Assembly (NCBI GenBank): GCA_043742705.1
Contig: JAYTXY010000056.1
Span: 1-55,137, forward strand
Direction of reading: 5' to 3'
DNA: 55,137 bases
Origin: Bacteroidota bacterium
GTDB lineage: Bacteria; Bacteroidota; Bacteroidia; AKYH767-A; 2013-40CM-41-45
Under the pieces are notes generated by a model. That model ran no database searches. It was not told the origin of the DNA and saw only the letters and a program-made list of their open reading frames with translations. Made by a program: the position numbers and the translations under genes. Positions 1-15,253 of this stretch are shown piece after piece (positions within the stretch are counted from its first letter, which is position 1; every line of letters starts with the position of its first letter).

Positions 1-324
1 ATCGGCAAAGAAGTAAGACGGTTTAAATTCAACGGAGAAGAAAAAGAGTACCTGATGGAATATGCTTTTGAGCCGGAGTTCTCCATTGTAAAAGCATGGA
101 AAGGTGATGCACATGGAAATTTAGTTTTCCGGTTGACGGCACGCAACTTCAATCCGCTCGTTGCTATGGCGGGAAAAACAACAATAGCTGAAGTGGAAGA
201 ACTTGTTGAGCCGGGCGAACTTGATCCGCAACAGATTCATGTTCCCGGAATTTATGTTCACCGGATTTTTAAAGGAGAAAACTTTGAGAAGCGGATTGAG
301 CAGAGAACGGTACGAAAAAAATAA
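1..324 (+). CDS. scoA: 3-oxoacid (succinyl-CoA:3-ketoacid) CoA-transferase subunit A, C-terminal part; the 5' end lies outside the window
   Basis: Frame 1 is open from nt 1. The tail AWKGDAHGNLVFRLTARNFNPLVAMAGKTTIAEVEELVEPGELDP is the conserved C-terminus of family I CoA-transferase alpha subunits. The beta subunit follows downstream. Confidence 0.9.
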   Translation: MGKEVRRFKFNGEEKEYLMEYAFEPEFSIVKAWKGDAHGNLVFRLTARNFNPLVAMAGKTTIAEVEELVEPGELDPQQIHVPGIYVHRIFKGENFEKRIEQRTVRKK

Positions 325-793
325 TTTGATAATTTGATGATGTGCTGATTTGATAATTTATTTTTACTATTTCAAACTTTTCTAAACTTAAAATTATGCA
401 AACTAACAAAGAAAACATTATCGTAAACCTTACTTTTGAATTTGCTCTTTCAGTGATTAAGTATACAGAAATATTAGAAGCAAAAAGAAAGTACAATGTA
501 TCCAATCAGTTGTTTCGTTCAGGGACATCCATTGGAGCTAACGTAAGAGAGGCTCAAAATGCAGAAAGTAAAGTCGACTTTATTCATAAATTAAAAATTG
601 CAGCTAAAGAAGCCGAAGAAACAGAATACTGGATCCTGCTATGTCAACAGTCCGAAAACTATCCCGAGCCAGGTCCATTACGCGATCAAATAGGTTCGAT
701 TCACAAGGTTCTTTCAAAAATTATCTCAAGCTCAAAAATTAAGAACTAAAGTATTCCATCACCAAATCAGCACATCATCAAATTACCAAATTA
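322..793. mobile_element. Candidate inverted-repeat-bounded single-gene cassette (cargo: four-helix-bundle gene) filling the scoA-scoB gap
   Basis: The left arm 322-354 (taatttgataatttgatgatgtgctgatttgat) is the reverse complement of 761-793 with 2 mismatches. The arms start at the scoA stop codon and end 1 nt before the scoB ATG. Confidence 0.5.
396..749 (+). CDS. Four-helix-bundle protein (23S rRNA intervening-sequence protein / S23p / Avd-like family)
   Basis: 117 aa with the family pattern QLFRSGTSIGANVREAQNAES..DFIHKLKIAAKEAEETEYWILLC. It sits alone between scoA and scoB and is bounded by a 33-nt inverted repeat. Confidence 0.85.
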   Translation: MQTNKENIIVNLTFEFALSVIKYTEILEAKRKYNVSNQLFRSGTSIGANVREAQNAESKVDFIHKLKIAAKEAEETEYWILLCQQSENYPEPGPLRDQIGSIHKVLSKIISSSKIKN

Positions 794-794
794 A

Positions 795-1454
795 ATGCTT
801 GACAAAAACGGAATCGCAAAAAGAATTGCAAAAGAAATTAAAGATGGATATTACGTAAACCTCGGAATTGGTATTCCTACGTTATGCGCGAATTATATTC
901 CTGCAGGAATGAACGTGGTGCTGCAATCGGAAAACGGAATTCTCGGCATGGGCGCTTTTCCGTACGAGGGAAATGAAGATCCTGATCTGATTAACGCAGG
1001 AAAACAAACGGTGACACTGCTGAATGGTTCATCTATTTTTGATTCTGCAATGAGTTTCGGAATGATCCGCTCACAGAAAGTGAACCTCACCATTTTAGGC
1101 GCGATGGAAGTAAGCGAAGATGGCGACATCGCCAACTGGAAAATTCCCGGGAAGATGGTGAAAGGTATGGGCGGAGCAATGGATTTGGTGGCTTCTGCAA
1201 AAAATATTATTGTTGCAATGCAGCATGTCAACAAAGCAGGAGAATCCAAGTTACTTCCGAAATGTGAGTTGCCTTTGACAGGAAAACGTTGTGTGAAAAG
1301 AATTGTAACCGAACTTGCCGTGGTGGATGTATTGCCGCAGGGAGGATTCAAATTAATTGAACGCGCTCCGGGAGTAAGTGTTGAAGAAATAAAAAAAGCG
1401 ACAGCAGGAAGACTGCTCGTTGAAGGCGATATTCCAGAAATGAAAATTGACTGA
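795..1454 (+). CDS. scoB: 3-oxoacid CoA-transferase subunit B
   Basis: 219 aa. Contains the catalytic-Glu motif [11 protein letters not shown] and GGAMDLV, typical of beta subunits. Confidence 0.93.
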
Positions 1455-1479
1455 CCTTTTTAAACTGAAGCATCTTCAC

Positions 1480-2202
1480 ATGACTACAATTACTAAACTT
1501 TCCATCATCATTCCGTGTTACAACGAAGAACGAACTGTTCATCTCATTCTTGACAAGGTTATCAAGGTTCAACTTAGAAATAACATTCAGAAAGAACTCA
1601 TCATTGTAAATGATTGTTCAAAAGACAGCACGAAAGAAACCATTGAAAATTATTTTCGAAATCATCCCGGTGTTGATTACAAACTTTTCAATCATGAAGT
1701 GAATAAAGGAAAAGGTGCTGCCATTCACACAGGAATAACAAAGGCAACGGGAGAATACCTTATCATACAGGATGCGGATCTGGAATACGATCCGAATGAA
1801 TATAATTTATTGCTGCAACCCATCCTTGATGGTTTTGCAGATGTTGTTTTCGGTTCACGATTCATGGGAGGAAATCCTCACCGCATTTTATTTTTCTGGC
1901 ATTCCATCGGTAACAAATTACTGACTACGCTGTCGAACATGCTCACCAACATGAACTTGACGGACATGGAGACCTGTTACAAACTTTTCAGAACCGACAT
2001 CATTCAGAAAATTGATCTCAAAGAAAAACGATTTGGTTTTGAACCGGAAGTCACTGCAAAAATTGCCCGCGTTCCCAAGGTTCGTGTTTACGAAGTTGGC
2101 ATTTCATATTACGGTCGTACATACGAAGAAGGAAAAAAGATCGGATGGAAAGATGGATTTAGGGCGATCTGGTGTATTTTGAAATACAATTTGTTTAGTT
2201 GA
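1480..2202 (+). CDS. Family 2 glycosyltransferase, polyprenol-phosphate sugar synthase-like (DPM1/ArnC/GtrB type)
   Basis: Motifs [19 protein letters not shown] and [11 protein letters not shown] (DxD). The ORF-track start at 1447 is TTG and overlaps scoB, so ATG at 1480 is preferred. Confidence 0.85.
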
Positions 2203-2240
2203 ATTTCTGACTGCGCATTCCGGAATAAAACAAGAAACTC

Positions 2241-4109
2241 ATGACTGCATTAAAATCAAAATCTTTTTTAACAACCATCTTTCTTGCCCTGCTGATTGCC
2301 TTTTGCTTTTTCAAAAACCCGCGCCAGGAGAACAATAAATATTTTACCAACGATCTTGAATGGGATGTGTTCTCTTACTACATGTACCTTCCCTATACTT
2401 TTGTTTATCACGATATGGGAATGAAGGATCCGAAAATCGTGGAGAACATTTTCAAAAAATATAATTTTCCGGGAACCTATTACCAGGCGTATAAACTGGA
2501 AAATGGAAACTATACTCCAAATTATACGATGGGTTTTGCATTGCTCTGGTCGCCTTTCTTTTTCATCGGGCATACCTGGGCGAAAGCCGGCGGCTATGAT
2601 GTAGACGGCTGGTCCTTTCCCTATCAATTCAGCATTGCTGTCGGAGTATTGTTTTACATTCTCATCGGCTTATTCTTTCTTCGAAAAATATTGCTTCATT
2701 TTTTTTCGGAGAATCTTACTTCACTGGTTTTACTGTTGACCGTTCTCGGTACAAATTATTTGCACGAGGCATTCAACGATTACATGCAGCCACATGCGCA
2801 GATTTTTACGGGCTATGCCGTACTGATCTATTATACCATTCGCTGGCACCAGGAGCAGAAAAAAAAGTACATGATGATTGCAGGACTCGTCATGGGTTTT
2901 ATGATTCTCGCAAGACCCAGTGAAATTCTGTGCCTCTTCATTCCGCTTTTGTGGAATGTATACGATAAAGAATCATTTCAAAAAAAGATTCAGCTGGTTC
3001 GTGCAAATCTTTTTCAGTGTCTCATCCTGATCGGATTTGCTTTCATTCCGTTCATTCCCCAGATCCTGTATTGGAAACACGTTACAGGTGCCTGGTTGTT
3101 TTACAGTTATCAACGTTACGAAGGATTTGATTTTCTGGCTCCGCATATTTTTAATTGTCTCTTCAGCTTTAAGAAAAGCTTATTCATTTATACACCGATC
3201 ATCATATTTCCAATCATCGGAATTTTCCTGATGAAGAAATACAATAAGATGATCTTTCTTCCTTTCCTCCTTTACTTTCTCTCCAATTTTTATTTGCTGA
3301 CAAGCTGGGCTGCCTGGTGGAATGGCGGAAGTTATGGCATGCGGTATTTTGTAGAATCGTATCCGGTGATGGCAATTTCATTCGGATATGTGCTCACCGA
3401 TATTTGGAAAAGGAAATGGTTGCTGAAGTCAATTACTTCTGTGCTGTTGGTTTTATTTACAGCCTTGAATCTTTTTCAGACCTGGCAGTACATGCACTGG
3501 ATCATTCCGGAAGACCGGATGAACTGGGCGTATTACAAACAAATCTTTTTGAAAACAAAAGTGACGGATGATGACCGTAAACTTATGGAAGTACAACGTT
3601 CGTATGACTACACGGAAAGTTTTACTAATCCTGAAGAATATAATCGCCATACAGTGGTTTACCTGAGCTTCGACAATGTCAACACCTCAGATTACGATGA
3701 ATCAAAAAAGGACACCGCTCTTTTTCTTTCCGCTCCTTCTTCTTTTAAAATGACGGAGAACGATGAGTGGGGACCTAATTGCAAGATTCAATACGATCAC
3801 TTGGTTCCTTCCGATAAAGATCATGCATGGCTGAAACTCAGCGCCTGGTATTATTCCGATGCTGACATCAAAGACAATGAGACAAACTTTGTCATCAACA
3901 TGCCTCACCATAAGTATAACCTGAAGTACCGCGCATTTAATTTTTCTCAGTTCCCGTGGAAAAAAGGCGAGTGGAATAAAGTGGAGTTTAATTATATGAC
4001 TCCATTCCCGTATTCCGAAAAAGATCATTTTGAAATTTACATCTGGCATCGCGGCAAACAAACCATGTGGTTAGATAACATGCATGTAGAGGCTTACCTC
4101 AAAAAATAA
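2241..4109 (+). CDS. Large polytopic membrane protein, GT-C-like (ArnT/PMT-like) putative glycosyltransferase with a C-terminal soluble jelly-roll/CBM-like domain
   Basis: 622 aa. About 12 hydrophobic segments are followed by a soluble tail of roughly 190 aa. It is a paralog of 7728..9548: shared DVFSYYMYLPYTFVYHD / DVHWYYAYLPAQFIYHD and WWNGGSYGMRYFVESYP / WWYGGTYGQRSMIDSFP. The functional family is inferred from architecture only. Confidence 0.65.
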   Translation: MTALKSKSFLTTIFLALLIAFCFFKNPRQENNKYFTNDLEWDVFSYYMYLPYTFVYHDMGMKDPKIVENIFKKYNFPGTYYQAYKLENGNYTPNYTMGFALLWSPFFFIGHTWAKAGGYDVDGWSFPYQFSIAVGVLFYILIGLFFLRKILLHFFSENLTSLVLLLTVLGTNYLHEAFNDYMQPHAQIFTGYAVLIYYTIRWHQEQKKKYMMIAGLVMGFMILARPSEILCLFIPLLWNVYDKESFQKKIQLVRANLFQCLILIGFAFIPFIPQILYWKHVTGAWLFYSYQRYEGFDFLAPHIFNCLFSFKKSLFIYTPIIIFPIIGIFLMKKYNKMIFLPFLLYFLSNFYLLTSWAAWWNGGSYGMRYFVESYPVMAISFGYVLTDIWKRKWLLKSITSVLLVLFTALNLFQTWQYMHWIIPEDRMNWAYYKQIFLKTKVTDDDRKLMEVQRSYDYTESFTNPEEYNRHTVVYLSFDNVNTSDYDESKKDTALFLSAPSSFKMTENDEWGPNCKIQYDHLVPSDKDHAWLKLSAWYYSDADIKDNETNFVINMPHHKYNLKYRAFNFSQFPWKKGEWNKVEFNYMTPFPYSEKDHFEIYIWHRGKQTMWLDNMHVEAYLKK

Positions 4110-4126
4110 ATCACATAAAAGTTTTC

Positions 4127-5650
4127 ATGAAAAAATACATTCTCTTTTTTCTTTTTTTATCTGCGTTTGCATCTCTTTGTTTGTTATTCCCGGGTGAATC
4201 AACGGATGATTTTGTTTCAGTGGATAAAAACAAATTTAAAAAAGATGACTTTGTCTCCATTGGCAAACATTCCTTTCAGATGAACGGAAAAGATTTCTTT
4301 CCGGTTACTGTCAACTACATGGTGCACATGCAAACAGACGGAAAGGACTTTTGGGCGCGCCCGGCCATTGATTACACTGCCGATACAATACATGAAAATA
4401 AAACGAAAGAAACCTGTCTGAAAGAGTTGGGTACTGACTTTAAATTGATAAAACAGTTAGGATTTAATTCGGTGCGGGTTATCTCCATCGGTGAGGTAAA
4501 AATAGAAAATGATAGTGATCGGTTCAGCCCAATTTCATTCGGATATTTTGCAGGAGACCATAACGTTGCTTACTCTCCGCTTGCCGATGAGAATAGTTAC
4601 AAAAAATATTTTGAAACACTTTCTCAATTGCTGAACGAAGCCAACAATGCCGGGCTGAAAGTAATTTTAGTGGTGAGAATTCGTCCGCAGGTATTTACAA
4701 CAGAATTTTTCCTCGACAGAATCACCAAGTATTTCCGGAACGATGCAACCCTGATGGCGTATGATTTATTCAACGAGCCGTTATATTTTGATAAGCAGGC
4801 AAGGAACAAAGAAGAGATTAATGTAATCACAAGAAGGTGGAAAAAATTGTGTCATCAAAATGCACCGCATCAATTGATGACAATCGGGCTGGAAGGAATC
4901 CGGGAAGCATTTGCATGGGATCCGTCTATTATCAATGTTGATTTCGTTTCATTTCACCCTTATGAACATGAGCCTGACCAGGTACGAAATGAAATATACT
5001 GGTACAGCAAACATGTGAACAAACCATGGGTCATCGGAGAAACATCTATTCCTGCAGATAATGACTCAATCAAATATGACGAACAAAAATTATTTGCACA
5101 CAAAACACTAGTGCAAGCGCATAACTGCGGAGCGTGGGGTTACTCGTGGTGGCAGTATAAAGATGTTCGTTGGAAAACATATCATTCAAGATACATGGGA
5201 GTGGTTAACTGGAATGGAGAAACGCATGTACAAAATGAAAATCTTGCCGTGTACGGAACAGTAAAACCTGTTGCAGAAGAATTTAAAAACTTTGATCCGG
5301 CAACCGTGAAAGGAGAATGTGCGTGTTTGACAAATTACTACAACTATTCTCAATTCCACGATAGCAGAATTAAAGGACGATTGGTAGATGAAAAAAATAA
5401 TCCGGTTGAAGGCGGAGTTATTATGGCGTGGGACAAATCCTGGGTGATGCCCTATCACACCATCACAAAAGCAGATGGAAGTTTTGAACTCTTAGGCAAT
5501 GTTCCTTTTTATCATTGGATTGCATCTGCCAATGCCCACTCTATGATTCGCGGAGAGCTTTTGCCCGATACTGCAAAACAGGCTGCGGATAAAATTCCAA
5601 CGCTGGATCTCGGGGATTTAAAAATTAAGACGCTCCCGTTTGGGGATTGA
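4127..5650 (+). CDS. Secreted glycoside hydrolase, GH5 (clan GH-A) like, with a C-terminal carboxypeptidase-regulatory-like beta-sandwich
   Basis: N-terminal signal peptide. Contains LMAYDLFNEP (acid/base Glu in NEP) and WVIGETS (nucleophile Glu). The C-terminal GRLVDEKNNPVEGGVIMA...TKADGSFEL resembles a CarboxypepD_reg domain. Confidence 0.75.
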   Translation: MKKYILFFLFLSAFASLCLLFPGESTDDFVSVDKNKFKKDDFVSIGKHSFQMNGKDFFPVTVNYMVHMQTDGKDFWARPAIDYTADTIHENKTKETCLKELGTDFKLIKQLGFNSVRVISIGEVKIENDSDRFSPISFGYFAGDHNVAYSPLADENSYKKYFETLSQLLNEANNAGLKVILVVRIRPQVFTTEFFLDRITKYFRNDATLMAYDLFNEPLYFDKQARNKEEINVITRRWKKLCHQNAPHQLMTIGLEGIREAFAWDPSIINVDFVSFHPYEHEPDQVRNEIYWYSKHVNKPWVIGETSIPADNDSIKYDEQKLFAHKTLVQAHNCGAWGYSWWQYKDVRWKTYHSRYMGVVNWNGETHVQNENLAVYGTVKPVAEEFKNFDPATVKGECACLTNYYNYSQFHDSRIKGRLVDEKNNPVEGGVIMAWDKSWVMPYHTITKADGSFELLGNVPFYHWIASANAHSMIRGELLPDTAKQAADKIPTLDLGDLKIKTLPFGD

Positions 5651-5686
5651 GATCATTTATAATTTTCGATGTTGGCGTAGTGGAAC

Positions 5687-7684
5687 TTATTCCTTCTTCA
5701 CCTCAATCACCTTGAAGGTTTCATTTTTTCCGATGGAAGTGCTACGTGCAAAAAGTCGGAATGATTTTTCATCCACCGTTATGTATTTGCCATTAACGCC
5801 AATAAAAGCAGCGTGCTCTTTATCAAGCCATACCAGTTTAAATGTTTCCCACCCAAGAACGGTCGGTCGTGTAGCAGTGATTTCTTCACCACTTCCCAGT
5901 TCTTCGCATAAAAATCTGTCGTCATAAGCACGGATTGCACATTTGCTGCTGTCAAATAAAATTAAGGTAAATGTTTCCCATTGGTAAGCATCTCCGCGAT
6001 TTGCAATTATCCTGTCCTCTATTGTTTTGTCAGCACAGGCATACATACCATTCATCGCCTGGAGATGTATGCGTGATCTGCCCCTCTCTCGCTTTCCAAA
6101 ATCATTAATGATTTGCAGCCTGCTCATATCCAAGTGGCTGGATTCGCTCCACTTTCTTAAACCATCATAATTGACATTGTCAAAAAAGGAACTGTAATTT
6201 CCCGGATGAGCCCCTGAGTATGCATTGACACATGGAATGTTCAGCTCCTGGGCAGCCAGCATAACATTAAGATGCGTTATTACATTTTCCTTCAGCACTG
6301 ATGGCACGTAAGCTATCGCAGTATAATTTTTATCGTACTGATTTTTTATTTTCTCTTTTAAGACATCTATTTGTTTCTGCGACTCCGACTTGTCATATCG
6401 TTTAACTTCTTCCGGGTTAATAAGATTATCCGCAACGATTAAAAATGGAAAACTCAGCAACATCATTTTCGCAGCGCGGCTATATTTCTGAATCTCATTA
6501 AAAACAAAAACAAATATCAGAATAAAGAACATGACCTCCGTATTAATCACCCTGTTAATAGATCGCATGGAAGAAAATCCCGGCAACTGAAAAATGATTT
6601 TATACAATGTGATCCCCCTAATGTTTAAACAGAAAATGAAACTCAGAAAAAGTCCGAGCGAAAGGAAACCGATGAACTTTCTTTTCTCTCGCTCTATCTT
6701 TTTTGACAAAAGGATGAATGGAAGAATAAGAACTCCTAACCAAGGAAGCGCACCCATAAATAGAAAATGACACCACCAGTCTTTTAAGGACATTCCATGT
6801 TCTGACAATAAACTCGCCCACAATATCGGAGCCTTCGAGGTAAAAAAATAGGACCGCCAGGTTGGGATAGAACTGTATGCATCTTCAAATGTTCGCATGC
6901 CCAGCGTATGTGCAATTTCTATATACGGCATCATCAAGGGTGCAGACAAAATGCAGGCAAGTAAAATCACAGCTACGTGATAGCTCAGTGTTTTTATTTT
7001 CCTGAACTGATTAAAGAGTTCCCAGTCTCTGTATACGGAAATGTAAGCAATGAGTAGAAAAAGCAACGTGTACAGTAAAAAGAACCCGAGGTAGATGCCG
7101 CAATAAAACTGGTAGACAATTCCAAGCATGAGCAACAGAAAATATTTCAATTGCTTTTGTTGTAAATATTCCCAACTCCAGTAAAATATTAACGGAACCA
7201 TAAACCGTGGAAAGACCTGCACGTTTGTTATATGTCCAAGTATGAAAATGGAAAAAGCAAAAATGTAAGCTCCGGTCGCTGATAAAATTGAATTCCCTGA
7301 CCACTTTTTCAGAACCCAGTAACAAAAAATATAATTCAATAAAAACAAACTGAGGAGCCAAAACTGAAATGCACTTTCTCTATCTTGTCCAAATATCCTG
7401 AACATGGAATAGATTGGAACGGTTCCCAATAAATTATCTGATAATGCAATTACATTGTGATATGGATACATAAATGGAGCATCCCAATATTTATGAACGT
7501 CACCGATCAGGTATTTGTGACCGTGTTCGAGGATATAATTATTAAACCTGGCATCTCCCATATCTCCGGGGATTTTTGAAAAATCAGGTCCAAAAATTTT
7601 CATTGGAACTAAGTATAAACCGGCGACAAGAAGAATAGCGGGAAGTAAAAAAGATTTTATCTTTTTCATACGATCAGAATTCAT
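5687..7684 (-). CDS. Large polytopic membrane protein (GT-C-like candidate) with a C-terminal three-repeat WETF beta-trefoil (fascin/MIR-like) module
   Basis: 665 aa. The N-terminus reads GDMGDARFNNYILEH and is followed by many TM segments. The C-terminal ~125 aa has three repeats containing ANRGDAYQWETF, ATRPTVLGWETF and IGKNETF. Confidence 0.65.
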   Translation of the reverse strand: MNSDRMKKIKSFLLPAILLVAGLYLVPMKIFGPDFSKIPGDMGDARFNNYILEHGHKYLIGDVHKYWDAPFMYPYHNVIALSDNLLGTVPIYSMFRIFGQDRESAFQFWLLSLFLLNYIFCYWVLKKWSGNSILSATGAYIFAFSIFILGHITNVQVFPRFMVPLIFYWSWEYLQQKQLKYFLLLMLGIVYQFYCGIYLGFFLLYTLLFLLIAYISVYRDWELFNQFRKIKTLSYHVAVILLACILSAPLMMPYIEIAHTLGMRTFEDAYSSIPTWRSYFFTSKAPILWASLLSEHGMSLKDWWCHFLFMGALPWLGVLILPFILLSKKIEREKRKFIGFLSLGLFLSFIFCLNIRGITLYKIIFQLPGFSSMRSINRVINTEVMFFILIFVFVFNEIQKYSRAAKMMLLSFPFLIVADNLINPEEVKRYDKSESQKQIDVLKEKIKNQYDKNYTAIAYVPSVLKENVITHLNVMLAAQELNIPCVNAYSGAHPGNYSSFFDNVNYDGLRKWSESSHLDMSRLQIINDFGKRERGRSRIHLQAMNGMYACADKTIEDRIIANRGDAYQWETFTLILFDSSKCAIRAYDDRFLCEELGSGEEITATRPTVLGWETFKLVWLDKEHAAFIGVNGKYITVDEKSFRLFARSTSIGKNETFKVIEVKKE

Positions 7685-7727
7685 GTGTCAGGATTGAAGC
7701 TGTTATCAAAAGCTACTGCTATTTATT

Positions 7728-9548
7728 TTACTTAAACAGTATTTTAAATTTTTCCTTATCTCCTATCTCATCACTCGTTGCGAAAACCTGTCCCCCCATT
7801 TTTTTTTCATCCACAGTAAAATATTTTCCATCTACGGCTTTAAAGGCAACATAATCATTGGCAAAATCGATGCGTGTAAAACTCTCCCACCCACCCATGT
7901 CGGGCCTGGTCGCTGTAATTTCTGAATCTTCGTTCAACTCAACCGACAGGAAAAGATTTTTAAATGATTGAATGACACATTCATTATTTTCAAATGTAAC
8001 CAGTGAGAACGTTTCCCAGTTGCCTGTGTCGTCCCGGTTAGCAACAACAAAGTCCGAATTGGCTTCATCCGCACAAAGAAATTTATTATTAAACGCTTTG
8101 AAACAAACTCGCTTTTTGCTGAGAACTTTTTTCTTATTGTAGTTATTTTCACCGCCGGAGTTTGAAAGATCTGATAACTGGTTTTCGGAGCGCTCTCCTC
8201 TTTTTGCTGCTTCAGAACTTGGAACCTTTACCCACTTATAAAAATCTTTGATCGGGTCGAGCTTGCCGAATTGTTTCACGTACAATTCTTTTGTCATTCC
8301 ATCCCAGTGCAAAGAAGAAAATTCAAACTGATACGTTTGAAAAATATTCAACCAAATAAAAAAGACAGCTATGCAAATAAACAGTCCTTTATAAATCCAT
8401 TTTCTCCCGGATAAATATTGTACAAAGGAAGCGAATGGAATTGCGAGGATGGGGAATGAGTCAATCATGCTGCGTTGTCCGTATGTTCCGCCATACCACC
8501 AACACCACCATGAAAAAATAATATAGACGTTGACAACAAAGAACAGGATGATTGGTAGCCGTAACTTTTTCACAACTCCCTTCATCAAAAATAATCCAAC
8601 GAGGGAAAATGCCATCATGGGCGTATAAAGCAACCAGCCTTTTCGAAAGCCGAAAAAGCCGGACAGAATTTTAGGTTGCCCAAAAAAGAAACTTTCTCCG
8701 GGGTAAGAATCACACAGGTAATTTCCCGTAGTTGCTTTCCAGTACATGAATTGAGGAACCCAGATCAGGAAAGCAAAAAATCCAATTACATTAATGAGAA
8801 ACCAGTCTCTTTTCAAAAAGGTCATTCTCTCTTTTAATTCAGCAACTGTTGAAACACCGTAGAGAAAGAAAAAGATAAGGATGATTCCATTGGAAGGTCT
8901 GATCAATGAAATCAGACCCAGCGTCAATCCGAGAATGATGGTATTCTTTGCAGACTGAGATTCGTACCATCGTATGGTGTAAAAAATAAAAACCGCGAAG
9001 AGGAAAAAATTGTAAACATGCGGCATGGGAGCTGATTGCGAAGCGTAGCACAATAAATTTGTTCCAAGCCCAATCAGCAATAGCGTAATTGCAATGTGTG
9101 CTTCGGAAAAATTATAGTGTCGTAATATTTTTCGCACATAATCCAGCCCGACAAACAGGTAGAAGACGGCACTCAGCAAAAGAAAAATTTTATATGGCTC
9201 GGAAAAACCATTCTCTGCATAGTTGGTGAAATGAGCAAAGGTATGCGCAACAAAAAAGAACGGAGCGTAAAGTATTGATAGCCCCAGTGTTGACTTAATT
9301 ACATTTTTGCCTTCGGGAGTTTGGACTGTCCAAAACAAATCATGGAGATCTCCATACTTGTAATTAATGTTACTTAACGTTATGTCGTGATAAATAAATT
9401 GAGCCGGCAAATACGCATAGTACCAATGAACATCGTGTTCAATAACCCGGTTGCTTTTGTTCCAACTCTTTAAATCAAAATCAATCCACAGGGATGCAAA
9501 TACAATAATGGCAATTGCGATTGTAGAGAATTGAATTTTCCCTTTCAT
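7728..9548 (-). CDS. GT-C-like polytopic membrane protein (paralog of 2241..4109) with a C-terminal WETF beta-trefoil module
   Basis: 606 aa. The TM core is homologous to 2241..4109. The C-terminal repeats ANRDDTGNWETF, ATRPDMGGWESF and IGDKEKF closely match the tail of 5687..7684. Confidence 0.65.
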   Translation of the reverse strand: MKGKIQFSTIAIAIIVFASLWIDFDLKSWNKSNRVIEHDVHWYYAYLPAQFIYHDITLSNINYKYGDLHDLFWTVQTPEGKNVIKSTLGLSILYAPFFFVAHTFAHFTNYAENGFSEPYKIFLLLSAVFYLFVGLDYVRKILRHYNFSEAHIAITLLLIGLGTNLLCYASQSAPMPHVYNFFLFAVFIFYTIRWYESQSAKNTIILGLTLGLISLIRPSNGIILIFFFLYGVSTVAELKERMTFLKRDWFLINVIGFFAFLIWVPQFMYWKATTGNYLCDSYPGESFFFGQPKILSGFFGFRKGWLLYTPMMAFSLVGLFLMKGVVKKLRLPIILFFVVNVYIIFSWWCWWYGGTYGQRSMIDSFPILAIPFASFVQYLSGRKWIYKGLFICIAVFFIWLNIFQTYQFEFSSLHWDGMTKELYVKQFGKLDPIKDFYKWVKVPSSEAAKRGERSENQLSDLSNSGGENNYNKKKVLSKKRVCFKAFNNKFLCADEANSDFVVANRDDTGNWETFSLVTFENNECVIQSFKNLFLSVELNEDSEITATRPDMGGWESFTRIDFANDYVAFKAVDGKYFTVDEKKMGGQVFATSDEIGDKEKFKILFK

Positions 9549-9566
9549 ATTTTCAGTTTGATTTTT

Positions 9567-9932
9567 TCACCAGGGATTCTCAAGGTCTTCTCGGGTATAA
9601 ACATGATCACGGACGGTATAATACGAATTGCCTGATGTCTTTTTCAGCTGCAACGAATCCTTTTTAATAAACAACCTTGAGAGCAACGCGATTGGAAACA
9701 GGAAAACAAAAAACACCACGGAAAGAATAACTTTCGACATCACCGTTCCCATGACGTGGGAAAGTTTCATCCACAGCCAATGAATTTTTTCCGTCAGGTA
9801 GTTACTGAATAAACCAATTGAAGAAACAATCACAATCGCAGGAAGCAAGTAATGATTCTTTGTCACCCAATAGATGACAGCCAAACCGAGTACAATACTC
9901 AAGATGGTTTCTAACTGTTTCTCCCGTTTCAT
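9567..9932 (-). CDS. SxtJ-family small membrane protein
   Basis: 121 aa with 3-4 TM segments and a C-terminus ...REDLENPW. It lies directly downstream of a carbamoyltransferase and a DUF5989 mini-ORF, the arrangement known from sxtI-sxtJ-sxtK. Confidence 0.75.
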   Translation of the reverse strand: MKREKQLETILSIVLGLAVIYWVTKNHYLLPAIVIVSSIGLFSNYLTEKIHWLWMKLSHVMGTVMSKVILSVVFFVFLFPIALLSRLFIKKDSLQLKKTSGNSYYTVRDHVYTREDLENPW

Positions 9933-9938
9933 GCGTGA

Positions 9939-10088
9939 TTAAAAAAGTGTGTAAATAAACGGTGCCAGCGCAGATCCTCCGCCGATCACAATCAGGATGC
10001 CTAGCAAAAGCAATACGATGATGAGCGGAGCAAGCCAGAATTTTTTCCGGGCTCTTAGAAATTTCCAGAGGTCTTTTAAGAAATCCAT
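9939..10088 (-). CDS. DUF5989 (SxtK-like) small membrane protein, 49 aa; absent from the ORF track
   Basis: Manual translation of the minus strand gives MDFLKDLWKFLRARKKFWLAPLIIVLLLLGILIVIGGGSALAPFIYTLF*. ATG is at 10088 and TAA at 9939-9941, 6 nt upstream of the SxtJ start. Confidence 0.75.
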   Translation of the reverse strand: MDFLKDLWKFLRARKKFWLAPLIIVLLLLGILIVIGGGSALAPFIYTLF

Positions 10089-10092
10089 CTTC

Positions 10093-10125
10093 TACGAATT
10101 ACGAATCGGTTACGAATATACGAAT
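10093..10125. repeat. Four direct copies of tacgaat in the carbamoyltransferase-DUF5989 spacer
   Basis: tacgaat occurs at 10093, 10100, 10111 and 10119. The same heptamer builds the arms of the hairpin elements at 36987 and 49801. Confidence 0.8.
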
Positions 10126-10139
10126 ACACAACTATTTGA

Positions 10140-12005
10140 CTAATCGAGCTTGAACTCTTTTTTCCATTCATCGGGAGCTTCCTTCCATGCGGGTTGTTCC
10201 TTCTTTGAAAACAAATAATTGTTAATGACTAAGTAATCCATTTCTGTACGCATGAAACAACGGTATGAGTCTTCGGGCTTACAAACAATCGGTTCTCCAC
10301 GCACGTTGAAGCTTGTATTCACCACTACTCCGTAACCTGTTTTCTCTTTGAACTTACTGATCAGTTTCCAGTATCGTGGATTGGTATTTTTATGAACTGT
10401 TTGTACGCGTGCGGAAAAATCAAGGTGCGTGATGGACTGCACGTCTGATCGTTTTGTATACAAACGTTCCATCAACGGAAGATGGTTATAATTTCCAGGA
10501 AGCGTTGCTCTTCTTTCCTTTACAACATCAGCAACAATCAGCATGTAAGGAGAAATTGAATCCAGCTCAAAAAACTTTGATGAATCCTCTGCCAGAACTG
10601 AAGGAGCAAACGGTCTGAAACTTTCTCTGTATTTAATTTTCAGGTTTAATTTTTTCTGCATCTCATCGTTTCGCGCATCTCCTAAAATACTTCTGTTCCC
10701 CAATGCGCGTGGACCAAACTCCATTCTTCCCTGGTGCCATCCAACCACATTTCCTTCCGACAAAACGGTAGCAACTTTATCCGAAAGCTCATCGAAATTT
10801 TCAATCTTGTGATAAACTGCTTTGTAACGCTTCGCCATCATTTCAATTTCTTTATCAGAATCTTCCGGACCTAGATAAGAACCTTGCATTTCATCCTGTT
10901 CACCGGAATGAACTCTTTCCTTTTTAAAAGAAATGTAATACGCAGCCAACGCAGCTCCTAATGCCCCTCCTGCATCGCCCGCTGCAGGCTGAATGTAGAT
11001 ATTCTTAAATATTTTCTTGCGAAGAAGTTTTCCGTTTGCAACACAATTCAGCGCCACTCCACCAGCCATGCAAAGATTTTCCGAATTCGTTAAACGCTTC
11101 GCTTCTTCTGCCATTTTAAAAACAATCTCTTCAGTGACTTGTTGTATGGCAAGACCTAAATCACAATGATGTTGTTCCAGGTTCTCCTCCGATTCCCTTA
11201 CCGGAAATCCAAAAATCTTTTCAAACTTATCATCATAAACCATTCGCAAACCCGTGGAGTAATTAAAATATTCCTGGTTCAGCCACACTGATCCATCTTC
11301 TTTGATATCAACTAATTTTTCCTTGATGATGTTCACATATCTTTTTACTTCTTCCGATTCCGGATTTCCATAGGGGGCAAGTCCCATCAATTTATACTCG
11401 CCTGAATTAACGCGGAAGCCGAGATAGTATGTAAATGCGGAATAGAGAAGTCCAAGTGAGTGCGGAAACTTCAGCTCTTTCAGAATTTTAATTTCGTTTT
11501 TATTTCCATGACAGATTGAAGCAGTCGCCCATTCACCGACACCGTCAATGGTAAGAATCGCTGAATCTTCATACGGTGAAGGATAAAACGCGCTCGCTGC
11601 ATGCGACAAATGATGTTCAGGAAAGAGAAGCTTTACTTTTTTCTTATCGTACTCCTGGATTTCTTTCAGCTCGTCATAAATCAATCGCTTCAAAAACATT
11701 TTCTCTTTCAGCCAAACGGGAATTGACATGAGAAATGATTTTAATCCCTTCGGAGCAAAACCATAATACGTTTCAAGCAACCGCTCAAGTTTCAACAAAG
11801 GTTTGTCATAAAAAACGATGGCATCCAGATCGTCAATTGTCAACCCTGAAAATTCAAGACAATATTTTACTGCATTGGTTGGAAAAGCAGGATCGTGCTT
11901 TTTACGGGTGAACCGTTCTTCCTGCGCAGCAGCCACAATTTTTCCATCCTGTACCAGCGCGGCAGCAGAATCATGATAGAAGGCAGAAATACCGAGAATG
12001 TTCAT
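10140..12005 (-). CDS. Carbamoyltransferase, NodU/CmcH/SxtI family
   Basis: 621 aa. Contains the N-terminal ILGISAFYHDSAAALV motif and MAGGVALNCVANG, plus the C-terminal YrdC/Kae1-like carbamoyltransferase domain (VNTSFNVRGEPIV). Confidence 0.9.
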   Translation of the reverse strand: MNILGISAFYHDSAAALVQDGKIVAAAQEERFTRKKHDPAFPTNAVKYCLEFSGLTIDDLDAIVFYDKPLLKLERLLETYYGFAPKGLKSFLMSIPVWLKEKMFLKRLIYDELKEIQEYDKKKVKLLFPEHHLSHAASAFYPSPYEDSAILTIDGVGEWATASICHGNKNEIKILKELKFPHSLGLLYSAFTYYLGFRVNSGEYKLMGLAPYGNPESEEVKRYVNIIKEKLVDIKEDGSVWLNQEYFNYSTGLRMVYDDKFEKIFGFPVRESEENLEQHHCDLGLAIQQVTEEIVFKMAEEAKRLTNSENLCMAGGVALNCVANGKLLRKKIFKNIYIQPAAGDAGGALGAALAAYYISFKKERVHSGEQDEMQGSYLGPEDSDKEIEMMAKRYKAVYHKIENFDELSDKVATVLSEGNVVGWHQGRMEFGPRALGNRSILGDARNDEMQKKLNLKIKYRESFRPFAPSVLAEDSSKFFELDSISPYMLIVADVVKERRATLPGNYNHLPLMERLYTKRSDVQSITHLDFSARVQTVHKNTNPRYWKLISKFKEKTGYGVVVNTSFNVRGEPIVCKPEDSYRCFMRTEMDYLVINNYLFSKKEQPAWKEAPDEWKKEFKLD

Positions 12006-12065
12006 AGAAAGAAGTGTGGCAAAAATAGAAGAATATTCGAAGAAGAAACCAACTGCTGAAAAGGA

Positions 12066-13376
12066 TTAATGCAGGGTTTTATGTTCAGAAAAACTTGAAG
12101 AACCTTCTTCAACATAATTAAGGATCACTTTACCTATTGCCTCTGATTTCATCTTTCGCCCTTCGTCACTGACATGACCAAGATCTTTGAAAATTTCATT
12201 GTGTTTTCCTGTGATCATAGAATCAAGATCAACAAAAAATATTTTGTCTTTAAACTCTTCTCCCAGCTTTCGGTTGATGGCATTGCATTGATCGATGGAT
12301 TTCGAAGAAGAATACATTGAAATAGAAGTATCCGTGCTGTGAGGAAGGGTTGTAAGAATCACTTTTATCCTTCTTAACAGTGCGACATCAATCATATTTT
12401 CAAGATTCCGTTCGAAAGGTTTTAGTTCAGTCAAGTTTGAAAAACCCGAACTCCTCTCTTTATGTTCAACTTGTATCGATGTTCCAAGTGATGTCCACGA
12501 AGGTGTCTTATCAATCCTGAATTTTAACCAACGATAAATTGTACTTACGCGAATCAGGTAACGATCATACACTGTTGGCGGACTAAATGATTTGAAAGCA
12601 TGTGTGTAATCGCCACGAAATTCTTCCGGTGATGCATTTCGAATCTTTGCTTCATTCCAACCATGATGAATTACAACGTAGTCAGGATGAAAATCAAGAA
12701 CGTTTAATAAAAAATTCACCAGTGAATGATTCGTGGTCCAGTAAGCTTGCCCGAAGTTCATCACTTCAAAATGTTTTGCTTTGTTGCTGCGATTGCTGTT
12801 TAGATAAGTCTCCAGAACTGCGGGATAACCATCTGCCGTGGTCGATTCTCCGATGCATGCAATACGAATCACATCGCCCGGTTTTTCGTAATTGAAATCA
12901 TGTCCGACAAAACCAAAATTGTTGAATGGAGGAAGATCTCCAAGTGCTTCGTTGCCTTTCAACGCAGCAGAAGGTTTTCCTGTAAACTGAAGAAACGGAT
13001 GACCGACATATGCGGTGTGAGCAGGATACGACCAGTTGCATTGTTCACTCAATTTATTTTTCGCTTCGGGATTGGCAATCAGCTTTATCGAAGTCCGTGC
13101 TACGAGTTCAATGAACATCAGAATCAACAAAATAAAAAACAGGAAAGAGAAAGTCGCGCGGATCCTTTCTTTCATGAAAAGAAAAAGAATAGAAAAACAA
13201 AGCAAAAGAATACTTGCAATAAGAAGATAGCGTGATTCATTGTAAACGAATTCTCCTACGGTGAACATTTTCCCACAGATAAAAGGAAATAATAAGATGC
13301 TGAAACAGATTCCCGTTTTCCCCAGGAAAGAATTAAAACGCACAGAGAAATCTTTTTTTTCAGTTTGATTGTTCAT
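12066..13376 (-). CDS. Membrane-anchored SGNH/GDSL-type hydrolase (putative glycan esterase/acyltransferase)
   Basis: 436 aa. N-terminal TM segments are followed by IRIACIGESTTADGYP (block I Ser), HHGWNE and DLGHVSDEG (DxxH-like block V). Confidence 0.6.
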   Translation of the reverse strand: MNNQTEKKDFSVRFNSFLGKTGICFSILLFPFICGKMFTVGEFVYNESRYLLIASILLLCFSILFLFMKERIRATFSFLFFILLILMFIELVARTSIKLIANPEAKNKLSEQCNWSYPAHTAYVGHPFLQFTGKPSAALKGNEALGDLPPFNNFGFVGHDFNYEKPGDVIRIACIGESTTADGYPAVLETYLNSNRSNKAKHFEVMNFGQAYWTTNHSLVNFLLNVLDFHPDYVVIHHGWNEAKIRNASPEEFRGDYTHAFKSFSPPTVYDRYLIRVSTIYRWLKFRIDKTPSWTSLGTSIQVEHKERSSGFSNLTELKPFERNLENMIDVALLRRIKVILTTLPHSTDTSISMYSSSKSIDQCNAINRKLGEEFKDKIFFVDLDSMITGKHNEIFKDLGHVSDEGRKMKSEAIGKVILNYVEEGSSSFSEHKTLH

Positions 13377-13411
13377 CGGTCAACTTTAATATCCGTATCA
13401 GCTTCTTTCTT

Positions 13412-15202
13412 TCACGCAATCGTATTTCTTTTCGAAAAAGCGTTTTGGATATCTTCAAGTCGCCCTTTAGGAATGGCTGCGATCAATCGTTTCGTATAAT
13501 CTGTTTTCGGAGAATTATAAATTTCATCTGCATCTCCCATCTCTTCTATTTTTCCTTTATTCATCACCACCATTCTGTCACTCATAAATTTCACAACAGA
13601 TAAATCGTGAGAAATAAAAATGTAGGTGAATTCGAAATCACGCTTGAGTTCATTGAGAAGATTCAAGACCTGTGCTTGTATGGAAACATCAAGTGCGGAA
13701 ACTGATTCATCACAAATGATAAACTGCGGCTGCAATGCGAGTGCACGTGCAATACAGATTCGTTGTCGCTGCCCTCCGCTGAATTCATGTGGGTAACGGT
13801 TGTAATGCTCTTCTTTCATGTTGACACGCGAAAGTAATTCCATCACTTTTTCTTTCCGCTGCTTATCTCCGTCATGAAGTCCGTGTACTTTCATAGGTTC
13901 AAAAATAGCTTCGCCAATTGTCATTCTCGGATTGAGTGATGAATACGGATCCTGGAAAATAATCTGGATATGTTTTCTCATTTGACGCAACTCTTTCCCT
14001 TCAAGTATTGCAAAATCTTTTCCTTTGAATATTACCTGTCCTGATTTCGGTTCCGTCAGACGAATGATTGTTCTTCCCAATGTAGTTTTTCCGCAACCGC
14101 TTTCGCCCACCAAACCCAGCGTTTCACCCGGATACACATCAAAGCTGACATCGTCAACTGCTTTCACATAATCCGTTACTCGTCCAAAGACTCCTTTGCG
14201 AATCGGGAAATATGTTTTCAGGTTCTTTACTTCCAGCATTGGCTGCTGTGCGTAAAGTTTCTGATGATGAGTTGTTGTTTCCTCTTTAGTCACAACAAGA
14301 TTTCCAATCGTTTCATCAACTGTCTTTTTGATTTCAATAAACGAACCATCCTTTTCTTCTTTCATGAAATCAGAAATGGTTGGCAGTACACGCAATCGTT
14401 TTTCAAGTGGAGGGCGACATGCGAGTAACCCTTTTGTATAAGGATGTTGAGGATTGGAAAATATTTCGAGCACAGTTCCTTGTTCAACAATTTTTCCTTT
14501 GTACATCACCACAACTTTATCAGCCAGCTCTGCTATGACACCAAGATCGTGCGTAATGAAAATCAAACCCATTCCTGTTTCCTGCTGAAGCTGGCGCATT
14601 AAGTCGAGAATTGTTGCCTGTACAGTAACATCGAGTGCAGTGGTCGGTTCATCAGCAATAAGCAAGGAAGGATCACAGCTCATCGCCATGGCAATCATCA
14701 CACGCTGCTTTTGTCCGCCACTGAGTTGATGAGGATAGCTGTCAAAGATATTTGCCGGCCGTGGAAGTTTTACTTTTTCAAAAAGCGAAATAGTTTTTTC
14801 ACGCGCTTCCTTTTTCGACATTTTTTTGTGAAGTATCAGTGCTTCCGCAACCTGGTTGCCGCAGGTGAAAACAGGATTGAGCGAAGTCATCGGCTCCTGG
14901 AAGATCATGGCGATTTCGTTGCCGCGATACGATCTCATTTCTTTTTCCGGGAGAGAAAGTAAATTCACAGCACCTCTCTTTTCCGAATAAAAAATAATTT
15001 CTCCACCGGAAATTTTTCCGGGAGAAGAAATCAAACGCATGATCGATAACGATGTCACTGATTTACCCGAACCTGATTCTCCGACAACGCCAACGGTTTC
15101 TCCCTTGTTCACGGAAAAGCTGATTCCATTCACTGCCTTCACTACGGATTCTTCCGTTTGAAATTCGGTGATGAGATTTTTTAGTTCGAGCAGTTTATTC
15201 AT
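13412..15202 (-). CDS. ABC transporter ATP-binding protein with two fused NBDs (Dpp/Opp/YejF-GsiA type)
   Basis: Walker A GESGSGKS and GESGCGKT; signature LSGGQKQR and FSGGQRQR; two Walker B/D-loops. No permease or substrate-binding gene is adjacent. Confidence 0.9.
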
Positions 15203-15228
15203 TTAGCTATTTCAAAATGAGCGATTAT

Positions 15229-15253
15229 AACCGGTCGCAAATTGCGACCAGTT
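15229..15253. terminator. Short hairpin between the exonuclease stop and the ABC ATPase start
   Basis: aac-c-ggtcgc aaatt gcgacc-a-gtt. The stem is 6+3 bp with a weak U-tract. The function is uncertain. Confidence 0.3.

Follow-up and report, generated by a model that had tools for sequence, protein, structure and literature searches.

Do the glycosyltransferases and the O-carbamoyltransferase that lie side by side at positions 1480-13376 of contig JAYTXY010000056.1 (assembly GCA_043742705.1, a Bacteroidota bacterium) serve one pathway? A first-pass annotation of the window, by which we mean the whole stretch of 55,137 nt that was analysed, had read this locus as a single uncharacterised extracytoplasmic glycosylation pathway encoded by 11 convergent genes. 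The convergent arrangement holds, whereas the count does not: nine genes are present, and nine are what that annotation itself listed. These genes form two functionally distinct modules sharing one hypervariable envelope island: a core, consisting of a family 2 glycosyltransferase (GT2), the polytopic proteins A, B and C and a hydrolase resembling glycoside hydrolase family 5 (GH5-like), and a portable cassette, consisting of an SGNH protein, a carbamoyltransferase (CT), a DUF5989 protein and an SxtJ protein. We put roughly even confidence in the reading that the core carries out lipid-linked periplasmic glycosylation of a surface glycan, with β-trefoil domains holding the glycan and the GH5-like enzyme trimming it, and that in this island the cassette carbamoylates the glycan or its lipid-linked precursor.

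Two modules in one variable island

The plus-strand arm encodes GT2, protein A and the GH5-like hydrolase; the minus-strand arm is a co-directional run of SGNH, CT, DUF5989, SxtJ, C and B. The arms meet at stop codons 5650 and 5687, 36 nt apart, and the minus-arm genes are probably one transcript, since their intergenic gaps are only 6-60 nt. Pfam confirmed the family labels first given to GT2, CT, DUF5989, SxtJ and SGNH. Features are listed with length in amino acids (aa) and with the basis of each assignment in brackets.

1480..2202, plus strand: GT2 glycosyltransferase, 240 aa (Pfam Glycos_transf_2)
2241..4109, plus strand: polytopic protein A, 622 aa, GT-C-like, paralogue of C, with a non-trefoil C-terminal domain (35% identity to C)
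4127..5650, plus strand: exported GH5-like (clan GH-A) hydrolase, 507 aa (PF00150 matches of orthologues, motifs)
5687..7684, minus strand: polytopic protein B, 665 aa, with GT-C-fold membrane domain, periplasmic α/β domain and C-terminal trefoil (AlphaFold and Foldseek)
7523..7567, minus strand: first extracytoplasmic loop motif of B, G40-D41-x-G-D44-A-R46...E53-H54 (conservation)
5690..6088, minus strand: C-terminal β-trefoil of B, residues about 533-665, CBM92/DUF7910 type (Pfam, PDB, Foldseek)
7728..9548, minus strand: polytopic protein C, 606 aa, with GT-C-fold membrane domain and C-terminal trefoil (AlphaFold and Foldseek)
9384..9440, minus strand: first extracytoplasmic loop motif of C, E37-H-D39...Y43-Y44-x-Y46-L-P48...D55 (conservation)
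7731..8120, minus strand: C-terminal β-trefoil of C, residues about 477-606, CBM92/DUF7910 type (Pfam, Foldseek)
9567..9932, minus strand: SxtJ-family small membrane protein, 121 aa, with about three transmembrane helices (Pfam SxtJ, transmembrane prediction)
9939..10088, minus strand: DUF5989 (SxtK-like) single-pass membrane protein, 49 aa (Pfam DUF5989)
10140..12005, minus strand: TobZ/NodU-type O-carbamoyltransferase, 621 aa, cytoplasmic (Carbam_trans_N/C)
12066..13376, minus strand: membrane-anchored SGNH/GDSL hydrolase or transferase, 436 aa, SxtL-like (Lipase_GDSL_2)

When metagenome contigs were scanned with the alignment of C, 86 C-family loci emerged, 36 of them at least 15 kb long. 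A GT2 like that of the window occurs in 52 of the 86 and in 30 of those 36, and the gap between GT2 and the nearest GT-C gene has a median of about 50 nt, being at most 100 nt in 40 of 68 cases; this frequency and these tight gaps mark GT2 plus GT-C as a conserved unit. The other core genes are accessories found in the window's closer relatives: GH5 in 9, trefoils in 17 and B in 4 of the 86 loci. A compact version lies at an unrelated site in a Flavobacteriales metagenome-assembled genome (MAG), L176, as a convergent six-gene locus of a trefoil protein, GT2, C, B, a polytopic trefoil protein and GH5. The cassette is present in only 1 of the 86 loci. Of the gene co-conservation supposed in the first-pass annotation, that of GT2 with GT-C is thus seen and that of cassette with core is not.

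The cassette has a distribution of its own. One genome per species was scanned with CT; no fewer than 594 relatives turned up, of which the 80 best came from many phyla. Partners were then counted within 6 kb of CT in 82 non-redundant loci, where gene order varies (the SxtJ profile was limited to open reading frames, or ORFs, of at most 300 aa, because a first iterated profile had drifted onto CT). DUF5989 lies near CT in 76/82 loci, SxtJ in 77/82, both in 74/82 and SGNH in 50/82, so that SGNH is missing from about 40% of cassettes; all four genes occur together in 46/82. The first-pass annotation had treated SGNH as an esterase-like addition to a pathway, yet it is rather a frequent fourth member of the cassette, as in sxtI/J/K/L. 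Cassettes were found in Bacteroidota, Pseudomonadota (including Rickettsiales and Pelagibacteraceae), Nitrospirota, Cyanobacteria, Acidobacteriota, Bacillota and Parcubacteria. Carriers in culture include Lacibacter sp. MH-610 (L039), Dyadobacter sp. CY326 (L051), Reyranella aquatilis KCTC 52223 (L059), Magnetospirillum sp. UT-4 (L063) and Pseudodesulfovibrio pelocollis SB368 (L042). CT is 73-86% identical to 120 Bacteroidota homologues and 53-75% identical across phyla, far better conserved than the GT-C proteins.

Gene neighbours were surveyed more widely in 79 species-level genomes, with glycosyltransferases sought within 5-10 kb of the cassette. In most genomes the carbamoyl trio occurs independently of glycosyltransferases, at odds with the single pathway first proposed. 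No further neighbour family recurs, the largest cluster covering 7/79 loci, and among 130 sampled neighbours, which carry 173 Pfam families, only three GT2 and three GT4 were counted. The breadth and autonomy of this CT, DUF5989, SxtJ and optional SGNH cassette are new. Together with the trio's presence in 74/82 loci over many phyla, these counts speak for a rival account that we hold to be possible but on balance doubtful, namely that cassette and core are unrelated neighbours, the cassette having merely landed in the island and modifying a widely shared envelope molecule (a polyprenyl-linked precursor, peptidoglycan, lipopolysaccharide or another lipid). The cross-phylum identity of CT and the almost invariant DUF5989 would fit such a common substrate, and so would two particular loci: L178, with a cassette but without A, B or C, and L009, where all four cassette genes adjoin those for a PglF/WbpM-like dehydratase, MurA and LptC. 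On the other side, GT2 and GT4 proteins make up about 6% of cassette neighbours within 10 kb, which may be above a typical genome average, and the island itself argues for a link in this lineage.

That island, 1454-13412 in the window, is the interval between an ABC double-ATPase gene and the CoA-transferase genes. It is framed on one side by genes for a β-lactamase, a 134-aa protein, an exonuclease and the ABC double ATPase, and on the other by those for CoA-transferase subunits and a penicillin-binding protein (PBP). The same flanks enclose differing gene sets in the loci L001, L003, L005, L007, L092, L093, L103 and L178. Recurrent contents are a GT2 of about 240 aa, one to five polytopic proteins (of the A/C superfamily or others, many bearing trefoils), a lone trefoil protein of 160 aa and GH5. 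The window encodes no tRNA, and the island borders show neither direct repeats nor a shift in GC content; nothing points to a classical integrative element.

What varies includes the decorating genes. Directly after the C orthologue, L001, L003 and L092 encode MBOAT and an AlgX that ends in a trefoil, the MBOAT plus AlgX pair being the classical machinery that O-acetylates extracytoplasmic polysaccharide; L093 has an AT3 acyltransferase with MBOAT, and L092 also has a Methyltransf_24. In L103 one strand carries C, a 619-aa trefoil protein, B, a 650-aa trefoil protein, SGNH, CT, SxtJ and DUF5989. In L007 one strand carries GT2, STELLO, CT, DUF5989, SxtJ, a 208-aa protein and GT87, and the opposite strand GT2, a bona fide PMT_2 protein (48 bits) and an A orthologue. 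The cassette is contiguous and co-directional with glycosyltransferase genes in the window, L007 and L103. In this lineage, then, it sits inside the variable island in 4/4 cases (window, L007, L103 and L178), in 3 of these 4 co-directional with GT-C or other glycosyltransferase genes 20-400 nt away, and it stands in for known glycan O-acetylation modules, all of which runs against mere neighbourhood. A hypervariable island whose acetyl, methyl and carbamoyl modules can be exchanged is new; it resembles serotype-type hypervariable regions, with a bearing on recognition by phages, predators and immune systems.

Further island genes deserve mention. Between trefoil-bearing GT-C genes, L093 encodes (5198-8055) a GH16 protein and a Peptidase_S74 protein with a C-terminal tail for type IX secretion (T9SS), which hints either at a surface polymer resembling β-glucan as the island product or at an interaction of that product with T9SS cargo.

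Membrane enzymes, lectin domains and donor enzyme of the core

AlphaFold models of B and C were built on 72-sequence alignments and compared to the PDB with Foldseek. Both models are confident, with a mean predicted local distance difference test score (pLDDT) of 95.2 for B and 90.5 for C, and both adopt the GT-C fold, as the first-pass annotation had supposed of the polytopic proteins. B matched PglB (3rce and 6gxc, TM-score on the query, TMq, 0.40-0.44), STT3 (6s7o, 0.43) and AglB, with E 4e-5 to 3e-4 and TMq 0.38-0.44 over GT-C structures. C matched PglB (6gxc, E 4e-5), Pmt1/2 (6p25), ALG12 (9s6t, TMq 0.40, TM-score on the target, TMt, 0.49) and AglB (7e9s), with E 4e-5 to 1e-4 and TMq 0.23-0.40. 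Outside the trefoil, the PDB matches of both proteins are exclusively GT-C enzymes. Proteins A and C are paralogous, sharing 35% identity across 431 aligned columns (E 2e-80), and because the model of C is a GT-C fold we assign A as GT-C-like. That part of the first description of A stands through C; its own PMT_2 score falls short, at 24.0 bits under a gathering cut-off of 26.1. A also scored 51 bits with the LA_3751/2 family (cut-off 200), for which C scored 31 bits, likewise below the NCBIfam cut-off. At least seven hydrophobic helices are predicted in A, and full-length orthologues at about 50% identity occur in L007 and L091.

Conserved acidic residues lie where GT-C enzymes would be expected to carry them. 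In the first loop of B, G40, D41, R46, E53 and H54 are invariant and D44 is at least 90% conserved among 72 homologues, with the same pattern in 48 divergent representatives; the model places the motif between TM1 (helix 2-31) and TM2 (helix 102-129). The corresponding loop of C, between TM1 (helix 7-26) and TM2 (helix 89-107) of its model, has D55, Y44, Y46, L47 and P48 invariant, and E37 and D39 at least 90% conserved, in 72 sequences. D38 and D58 of A (nt 2352-2414) align to D39 and D55 of C. Judged by conservation, the first-loop acidic residues of B are candidate catalytic or metal-binding residues.

At the sequence level these proteins stand apart. The membrane domain of B had no match in Pfam, NCBIfam or a PDB sequence search, and none of the 48 B-family representatives has a solid Pfam match. 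The membrane domains of A, B and C, searched against the PDB as single sequences and as profiles, matched nothing, including ArnT or any solved GT-C enzyme, and none of the three belongs to a curated GT-C family above Pfam or NCBIfam cut-offs. The B family comprises at least 1,419 clusters at 50% identity (profile search, E ≤ 1e-30); C has 1,563 homologues, all unnamed and all from Bacteroidota MAGs. These unannotated GT-C families, and their fusions to CBM92-type lectins described below, are new.

Two side observations concern these proteins. The gene call for B, P0121, is 624 aa long (94% of the ORF), starting about 41 codons past the first ATG (window 7562-7684); the 665-aa frame is the right one, because homologues align from residue 3 and the shorter call loses TM1 and starts inside the PGDxGD motif. 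The non-trefoil C-terminal domain of A (residues about 466-601, window 3636-4043) recurs in a single-pass 764-aa protein of L178 (12599-14893), which is 27% identical over 139 residues to the A-type orthologue in L005. This recurrence points to a separable extracytoplasmic module, which no Pfam model matches.

The first-pass annotation had passed over the C-terminal β-trefoils of B and C, of the CBM92/fascin type, which Pfam, PDB and Foldseek searches revealed. The trefoil of B matches DUF7910 in Pfam (5e-13), the PDB entry 7zoi (3e-14) and, by Foldseek, 7zoh, 7zoi and 7zon (TMt 0.87-0.90); that of C matches DUF7910 (5e-11) and 7zon, 7zoh and 7zoi (TMt 0.85-0.89). The two are 39% identical over 151 aligned columns and are the only domain common to B and C. 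CBM92 binds β-1,6- and β-1,3-glucans through the Trp of a WExF motif that ends each of its three subdomains (PMC11039641), and natural members in which one Trp site is absent show weaker binding (PMC11039641). The subdomains end in WETF, WETF and NETF in B, and in WETF, WESF and KEKF in C; with Trp kept in two of the three motifs, two sites are intact in each protein. The likeness to Chitinophaga pinensis CpCBM92A/B (7zoi/7zoh) extends to the β-trefoil fold (TMt 0.85-0.90), the sequence match (3e-14) and WExF at the α and β sites, and the differences are the γ site without Trp and the fusion to GT-C membrane enzymes instead of secreted hydrolases. Lectins of the CBM92 type fused to biosynthetic membrane enzymes are a new context for this module.

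The GH5 label needs some care. The window protein had no match to Pfam Cellulase (PF00150) even at E ≤ 0.1, but four of six orthologues, 49-53% identical, do match (best 2.5e-9); the protein is 48% identical to the L001 orthologue. An FNEP motif (E217, in FNEPLYFD) and a GET motif (E305) are invariant among the orthologues, whose PDB profile search returned weak GH5 matches (E 0.02-0.03) mixed with kinase noise. Given the PF00150 matches and the invariant motifs, 'GH5-like, clan GH-A' is a reasonable label. One N-terminal hydrophobic helix (signal or anchor) precedes the domain and a CarboxypepD_reg-like β-sandwich follows at the C-terminus. The helix, the orthologue matches and the motifs accord with the secreted GH5 of the first-pass annotation, and the missing Pfam match of the window copy itself does not.

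A hydrolase together with CBM92 modules might suggest catabolism, i.e. a glycan-foraging locus that degrades environmental β-glucan with GH5 and CBM92. CBM92 modules are otherwise borne by secreted glycoside hydrolases and bind β-1,6- and β-1,3-glucans, and to the GH5 here can be added the GH16 of L093. We nevertheless think this very improbable: the trefoils are fused to GT-C-fold membrane proteins of 8-13 helices rather than to hydrolases, and partnership with the DPMS-like GT2 is obligate. A polysaccharide utilization or other catabolic locus was accordingly considered and rejected, with no SusC/SusD pair, sugar transporter or regulator in or beside the locus and with the trefoils fused to GT-C proteins.

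Protein O-glycosylation is harder to set aside, though we find it quite unlikely. The core would then be PMT-like and transfer hexose from polyprenyl-P-hexose to Ser/Thr of secreted or outer-membrane proteins, instead of making or lengthening a polysaccharide. As in the eukaryotic and actinobacterial PMT/DPM1 systems, a DPMS-like GT2 is combined with GT-C proteins, A has its weak PMT_2-like signal, the model of C matches Pmt1/Pmt2 (6p25), and a trefoil is present, eukaryotic PMTs also having a β-trefoil (MIR) domain; the model of B is nearest to the oligosaccharyltransferases PglB, STT3 and AglB, and L007 has its bona fide PMT_2 protein at 48 bits. The likeness has its limits, in that the PMT_2 score of A is sub-threshold and the trefoils here are C-terminal and of CBM92 type, not intra-loop MIR domains, while in B the WWDYG motif region typical of oligosaccharyltransferases was not seen by eye. 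Several paralogous GT-C proteins per locus, each with a glycan-binding-type trefoil that keeps WExF sites, would also be unexpected, as would a dedicated GH5 (plus GH16 in L093) and, in sister islands, MBOAT with AlgX, since AlgX-type proteins act on polysaccharides. The GH5 and AlgX context points to a polysaccharide rather than a PMT-type product.

The likely source of the sugar donor is GT2. It matches Glycos_transf_2 (PF00535, 5e-31), and its best PDB matches are the Pyrococcus dolichyl-phosphate mannose synthase DPMS (5mlz, 8e-14 over residues 5-221), GtrB (5ekp) and ArnC (9bhc); all of these closest solved relatives load sugar onto polyprenyl phosphate. The best NCBIfam matches are AglJ, PgfS, PpgS, ArnC and a Dol-P-hexose transferase, every one below its cut-off. 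A DAD motif lies at residues 98-100 and the GT-A alignment to DPMS-type enzymes is full-length. By homology GT2 is a candidate polyprenyl-phosphate hexose synthase, in keeping with the 'polyprenol-P-sugar synthase type' of the first-pass annotation. Its start is placed at ATG 1480 in preference to TTG 1447, which overlaps the upstream gene.

The carbamoyltransferase cassette

CT matches Carbam_trans_N (3e-96, 323 bits) and Carbam_trans_C (4e-72, 242 bits) in Pfam, and in the PDB it matches GdmN, the decarbamoylnovobiocin carbamoyltransferase (9s2t) and TobZ at about 1e-82 to 1e-87. A Kae1-like N domain is joined to a YrdC-like C domain, and the motifs for metal and nucleotide are conserved; both domains are intact, H11, D12, H131, H132, H135, D344 and N563-N567 are invariant and the TSFN motif is kept. 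NodU itself was rejected as an identity for CT (133 bits against a cut-off of 1000). CT is assigned to the cytoplasm because it has neither a signal peptide nor a transmembrane helix, and because ATP and carbamoyl phosphate are needed. A clade-specific C-terminal tail (window 10140-10200) carries the invariant residues W614..E617-F618-x-L620-D621, and alignments to TobZ (576 aa) and GdmN stop before it, at about query residue 601-605; the tail is a candidate docking motif for membrane partners.

Possible partners of this kind are the two small membrane proteins. The DUF5989 protein (Pfam 7.9e-27) is near-invariant across phyla, with the pattern FLKDLW..RKK.WL.P...GSA.APFIYTLF. Between the window and L178 (11980-12129) it is 100% identical, while the neighbouring CT is 86% and SxtJ 76% identical; judged from these alignments, the constraint is unusually strong for a single-pass peptide. 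SxtJ was recognised by Pfam at 2.7e-6.

SGNH matches Lipase_GDSL_2 (1e-9), gave only weak generic GDSL matches in the PDB, and has transmembrane helices at 22-40, 50-68 and 74-92. Cassette SGNH proteins mostly have one N-terminal anchor; G176 and the catalytic S178 and H401 are invariant, and N241 is 91% conserved. By the positive-inside rule their anchors count 26 N-in, 13 opposite and 9 ties, which leans to an extracytoplasmic domain. The parts of the cassette thus appear to lie on different sides of the membrane, with CT cytoplasmic and SGNH leaning outward. A further residue, E90 (91%), ends the last N-terminal transmembrane helix (residues 90-94 are 13095-13109 in the window), and an Arg follows three or four residues later in most of 12 flanks (LEIGTR, LELFSR and, in the window, IELVAR); E90 with this Arg could be a membrane-interface motif.

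The same four families form sxtI-sxtJ-sxtK-sxtL of saxitoxin clusters, and here they are contiguous on one strand (9567-13376); an sxt-like order CT-SxtJ-DUF5989-SGNH occurs in Oscillatoriales, Tychonema and Microcoleus loci. Of the toxin genes, sxtJ and sxtK are uncharacterised and sxtL is a proposed decarbamoylase (PMC2684587, PMC2885083). The window differs in having no other sxt gene and in its context of envelope glycosylation, and it is therefore uninformative on toxin synthesis.

A more ambitious view, which we think unlikely, takes CT, SxtJ and DUF5989, with or without SGNH, as a previously unrecognised, phylum-spanning machine for carbamoylation across the envelope. CT would dock on SxtJ and DUF5989, perhaps through its invariant W..EF.LD tail, and carbamoylate a polyprenyl-linked sugar or glycan; SxtJ and DUF5989 would flip or pass on the substrate, and the membrane-anchored, probably extracytoplasmic SGNH would transfer or edit the carbamoyl group. 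It would parallel either the MBOAT/AT3-SGNH systems of O-acetylation, with carbamoyl in place of acetyl, or ArnD/ArnEF. With the former (AlgI/J/F/X, PatA/B, OafA) the cassette has in common a cytoplasmic donor, one or more membrane components and an anchored SGNH-like enzyme, and MBOAT plus AlgX-trefoil fills its place in sister islands. The differences are that acetyl-CoA is replaced here by carbamoyl phosphate and ATP used by a TobZ-type enzyme, that neither SxtJ nor DUF5989 is related to MBOAT or AT3, and that SGNH is absent from the share of cassettes given above. As for the latter, in the Arn pathway the lipid-linked sugar is edited by ArnD and then flipped by the small membrane proteins ArnE/F, and by analogy CT with SxtJ and DUF5989 could do the equivalent. 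If true, such a machine would explain the long-unassigned sxtJ, sxtK and sxtL as a co-opted envelope cassette. A literature search found no paper that mentions DUF5989 or that joins an O-carbamoyltransferase with SGNH. Cassettes occur in at least about 600 species representatives across many phyla; to identify what they modify would be to describe a new kind of envelope modification and to shed light on where sxtI-L came from.

A candidate pathway and its known counterparts

We return to the reading favoured at the outset, a core that glycosylates a surface glycan and a cassette that carbamoylates it. What was observed directly is which genes are present, the folds and motifs of their products, how often the genes co-occur and how the island varies; from this we infer the catalytic activities, sugar, acceptor, flippase and carbamoylated position. 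Soluble GT2 would make a polyprenyl-phosphate hexose at the cytoplasmic face, as its homology and its adjacency to GT-C genes suggest, and the lipid-linked sugar would then be flipped across the membrane. From fold and motifs, the three GT-C-fold enzymes A, B and C would hand the sugar on to an acceptor glycan beyond the cytoplasmic membrane, using the acidic residues of their first outward loops. The trefoils of B and C may hold the acceptor or product glycan, by analogy with the lectin or carbohydrate-binding domains of Emb, AftD and PMT, and the exported GH5-like enzyme may trim or release the glycan as hydrolases of other exopolysaccharide systems do. In sum the core would add or polymerise hexose on a surface glycan from polyprenyl-P-hexose, and the cassette would O-carbamoylate an envelope substrate. 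Here the core's glycan or its lipid-linked sugar is the most likely substrate, because the cassette probably shares a minus-strand operon with C and B and occupies the slot taken elsewhere by MBOAT plus AlgX, AT3 or a methyltransferase; in this lineage it may therefore decorate the island's glycan.

Several findings weigh against this reading. (i) B and C resemble GT-C structures at TM-scores of about 0.4 and with large root-mean-square deviation (rmsd), which implies a common fold and not near kinship, and the homologues of these families are all 'hypothetical' proteins from uncultured bacteria. (ii) The best equivalog score of GT2 is 98.5 bits, with AglJ, against a cut-off of 325, the others being lower. 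Transmembrane prediction gave no hydrophobic helix in its 240 aa, unlike GtrB, ArnC and PfDPMS; since DPM1/PpgS-type enzymes without transmembrane helices exist, this is still compatible with a polyprenyl-phosphate function. (iii) No flippase, priming enzyme or export component was identifiable. (iv) Characterised CBM92 ligands are mainly β-glucans, and the founding member binds carrageenan, whereas GT2 plus an inverting GT-C ordinarily yields α-linkages, so that the trefoil ligand is not transferable from CBM92. (v) In none of the 79 genomes from other lineages does an A/C-type GT-C lie near the cassette, GT2 or GT4 was detected within 5-10 kb of it in only 18-20 of the 79 loci, and the closest copy of the cassette, that of L178 at the same island site, has no A, B, C, GH5 or SGNH beside it; with glycosyltransferases mostly missing nearby, the cassette may act on a widespread envelope molecule that has nothing to do with the core.

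A capsule-type arrangement was excluded, in agreement with the first-pass annotation, which saw no obvious polymerase, flippase or nucleotide-sugar genes. At E ≤ 0.01 no Pfam match to Wzx, Wzy, initiating phosphoglycosyl-transferase or nucleotide-sugar families was found in the nine-gene span. Another 35 products of the 55-kb window gave housekeeping families, with those of Wzx/Wzy loci, and chain-length and export proteins, likewise absent. A Wzx/Wzy capsule or O-antigen locus was rejected accordingly.

The proposed ArnC/ArnT- or DPM1/PMT-like logic of the first-pass annotation is upheld for the core by the relatives of GT2, the GT-C folds of B and C, the loop motifs and the co-conservation of GT2 with GT-C. 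As in ArnC/ArnT and GtrA/GtrB/GtrC, an ArnC/GtrB-related GT2 adjoins polytopic GT-C-fold proteins predicted to act outward. The locus differs from these systems in having no ArnA/B/D/E/F or GtrA homologue, a GT2 without C-terminal transmembrane helices, and three GT-C proteins, two of them with lectin domains, plus GH5, and there is no sequence match to ArnT. A second parallel is mycobacterial. EmbA/B/C, AftA-D and MptA/B are paralogous GT-C enzymes that use lipid-P-monosaccharide donors (Ppm1, DPA pathway) to lengthen a polymer on the outer side of the membrane and whose C-terminal carbohydrate-binding domains hold the acceptor. The present locus likewise has several paralogous GT-C proteins, one B-family member has a weak GT-C_AftD match (9e-4), and L007 encodes a GT87 protein; the phylum is another, there is no sequence homology, and the lectin here is a CBM92 β-trefoil.

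Periplasmic glycosylation by GT2 and GT-C, glycan O-decoration modules and TobZ-type carbamoyltransferases are known in kind, and a literature search for polyprenyl-linked GT-C glycosyltransferases in Bacteroidota gave no match. The A/C family, with its 1,563 homologues, and the B family, with at least 1,400 clusters at 50% identity, are sizeable GT-C-fold families without annotation. The core indicates that lipid-phosphate monosaccharides serve uncultured Bacteroidota in making or decorating a surface glycan, a strategy familiar above all from the cell walls of mycobacteria and from the modification of lipid A or O-antigen.

Two observations concern the sequence around the locus. A scan of positions 1-16200 for promoters and terminators gave 42 and 11 hits, no excess over the 39.7 and 14.9 of shuffled controls, with Bacteroidota promoters lying outside the models scanned. 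Upstream, a 36-nt inverted repeat, 92% complementary, with arms at 322-357 and 758-793, surrounds a gene for a 117-aa protein (396-749, plus strand) of the 23S_rRNA_IVP four-helix-bundle family (PF05635, 1.5e-21). This repeat-flanked gene separates two CoA-transferase subunit genes that are directly adjacent in the syntenic L003 and L005, and positions 322-793 of the window look like a small inverted-repeat-flanked insertion.

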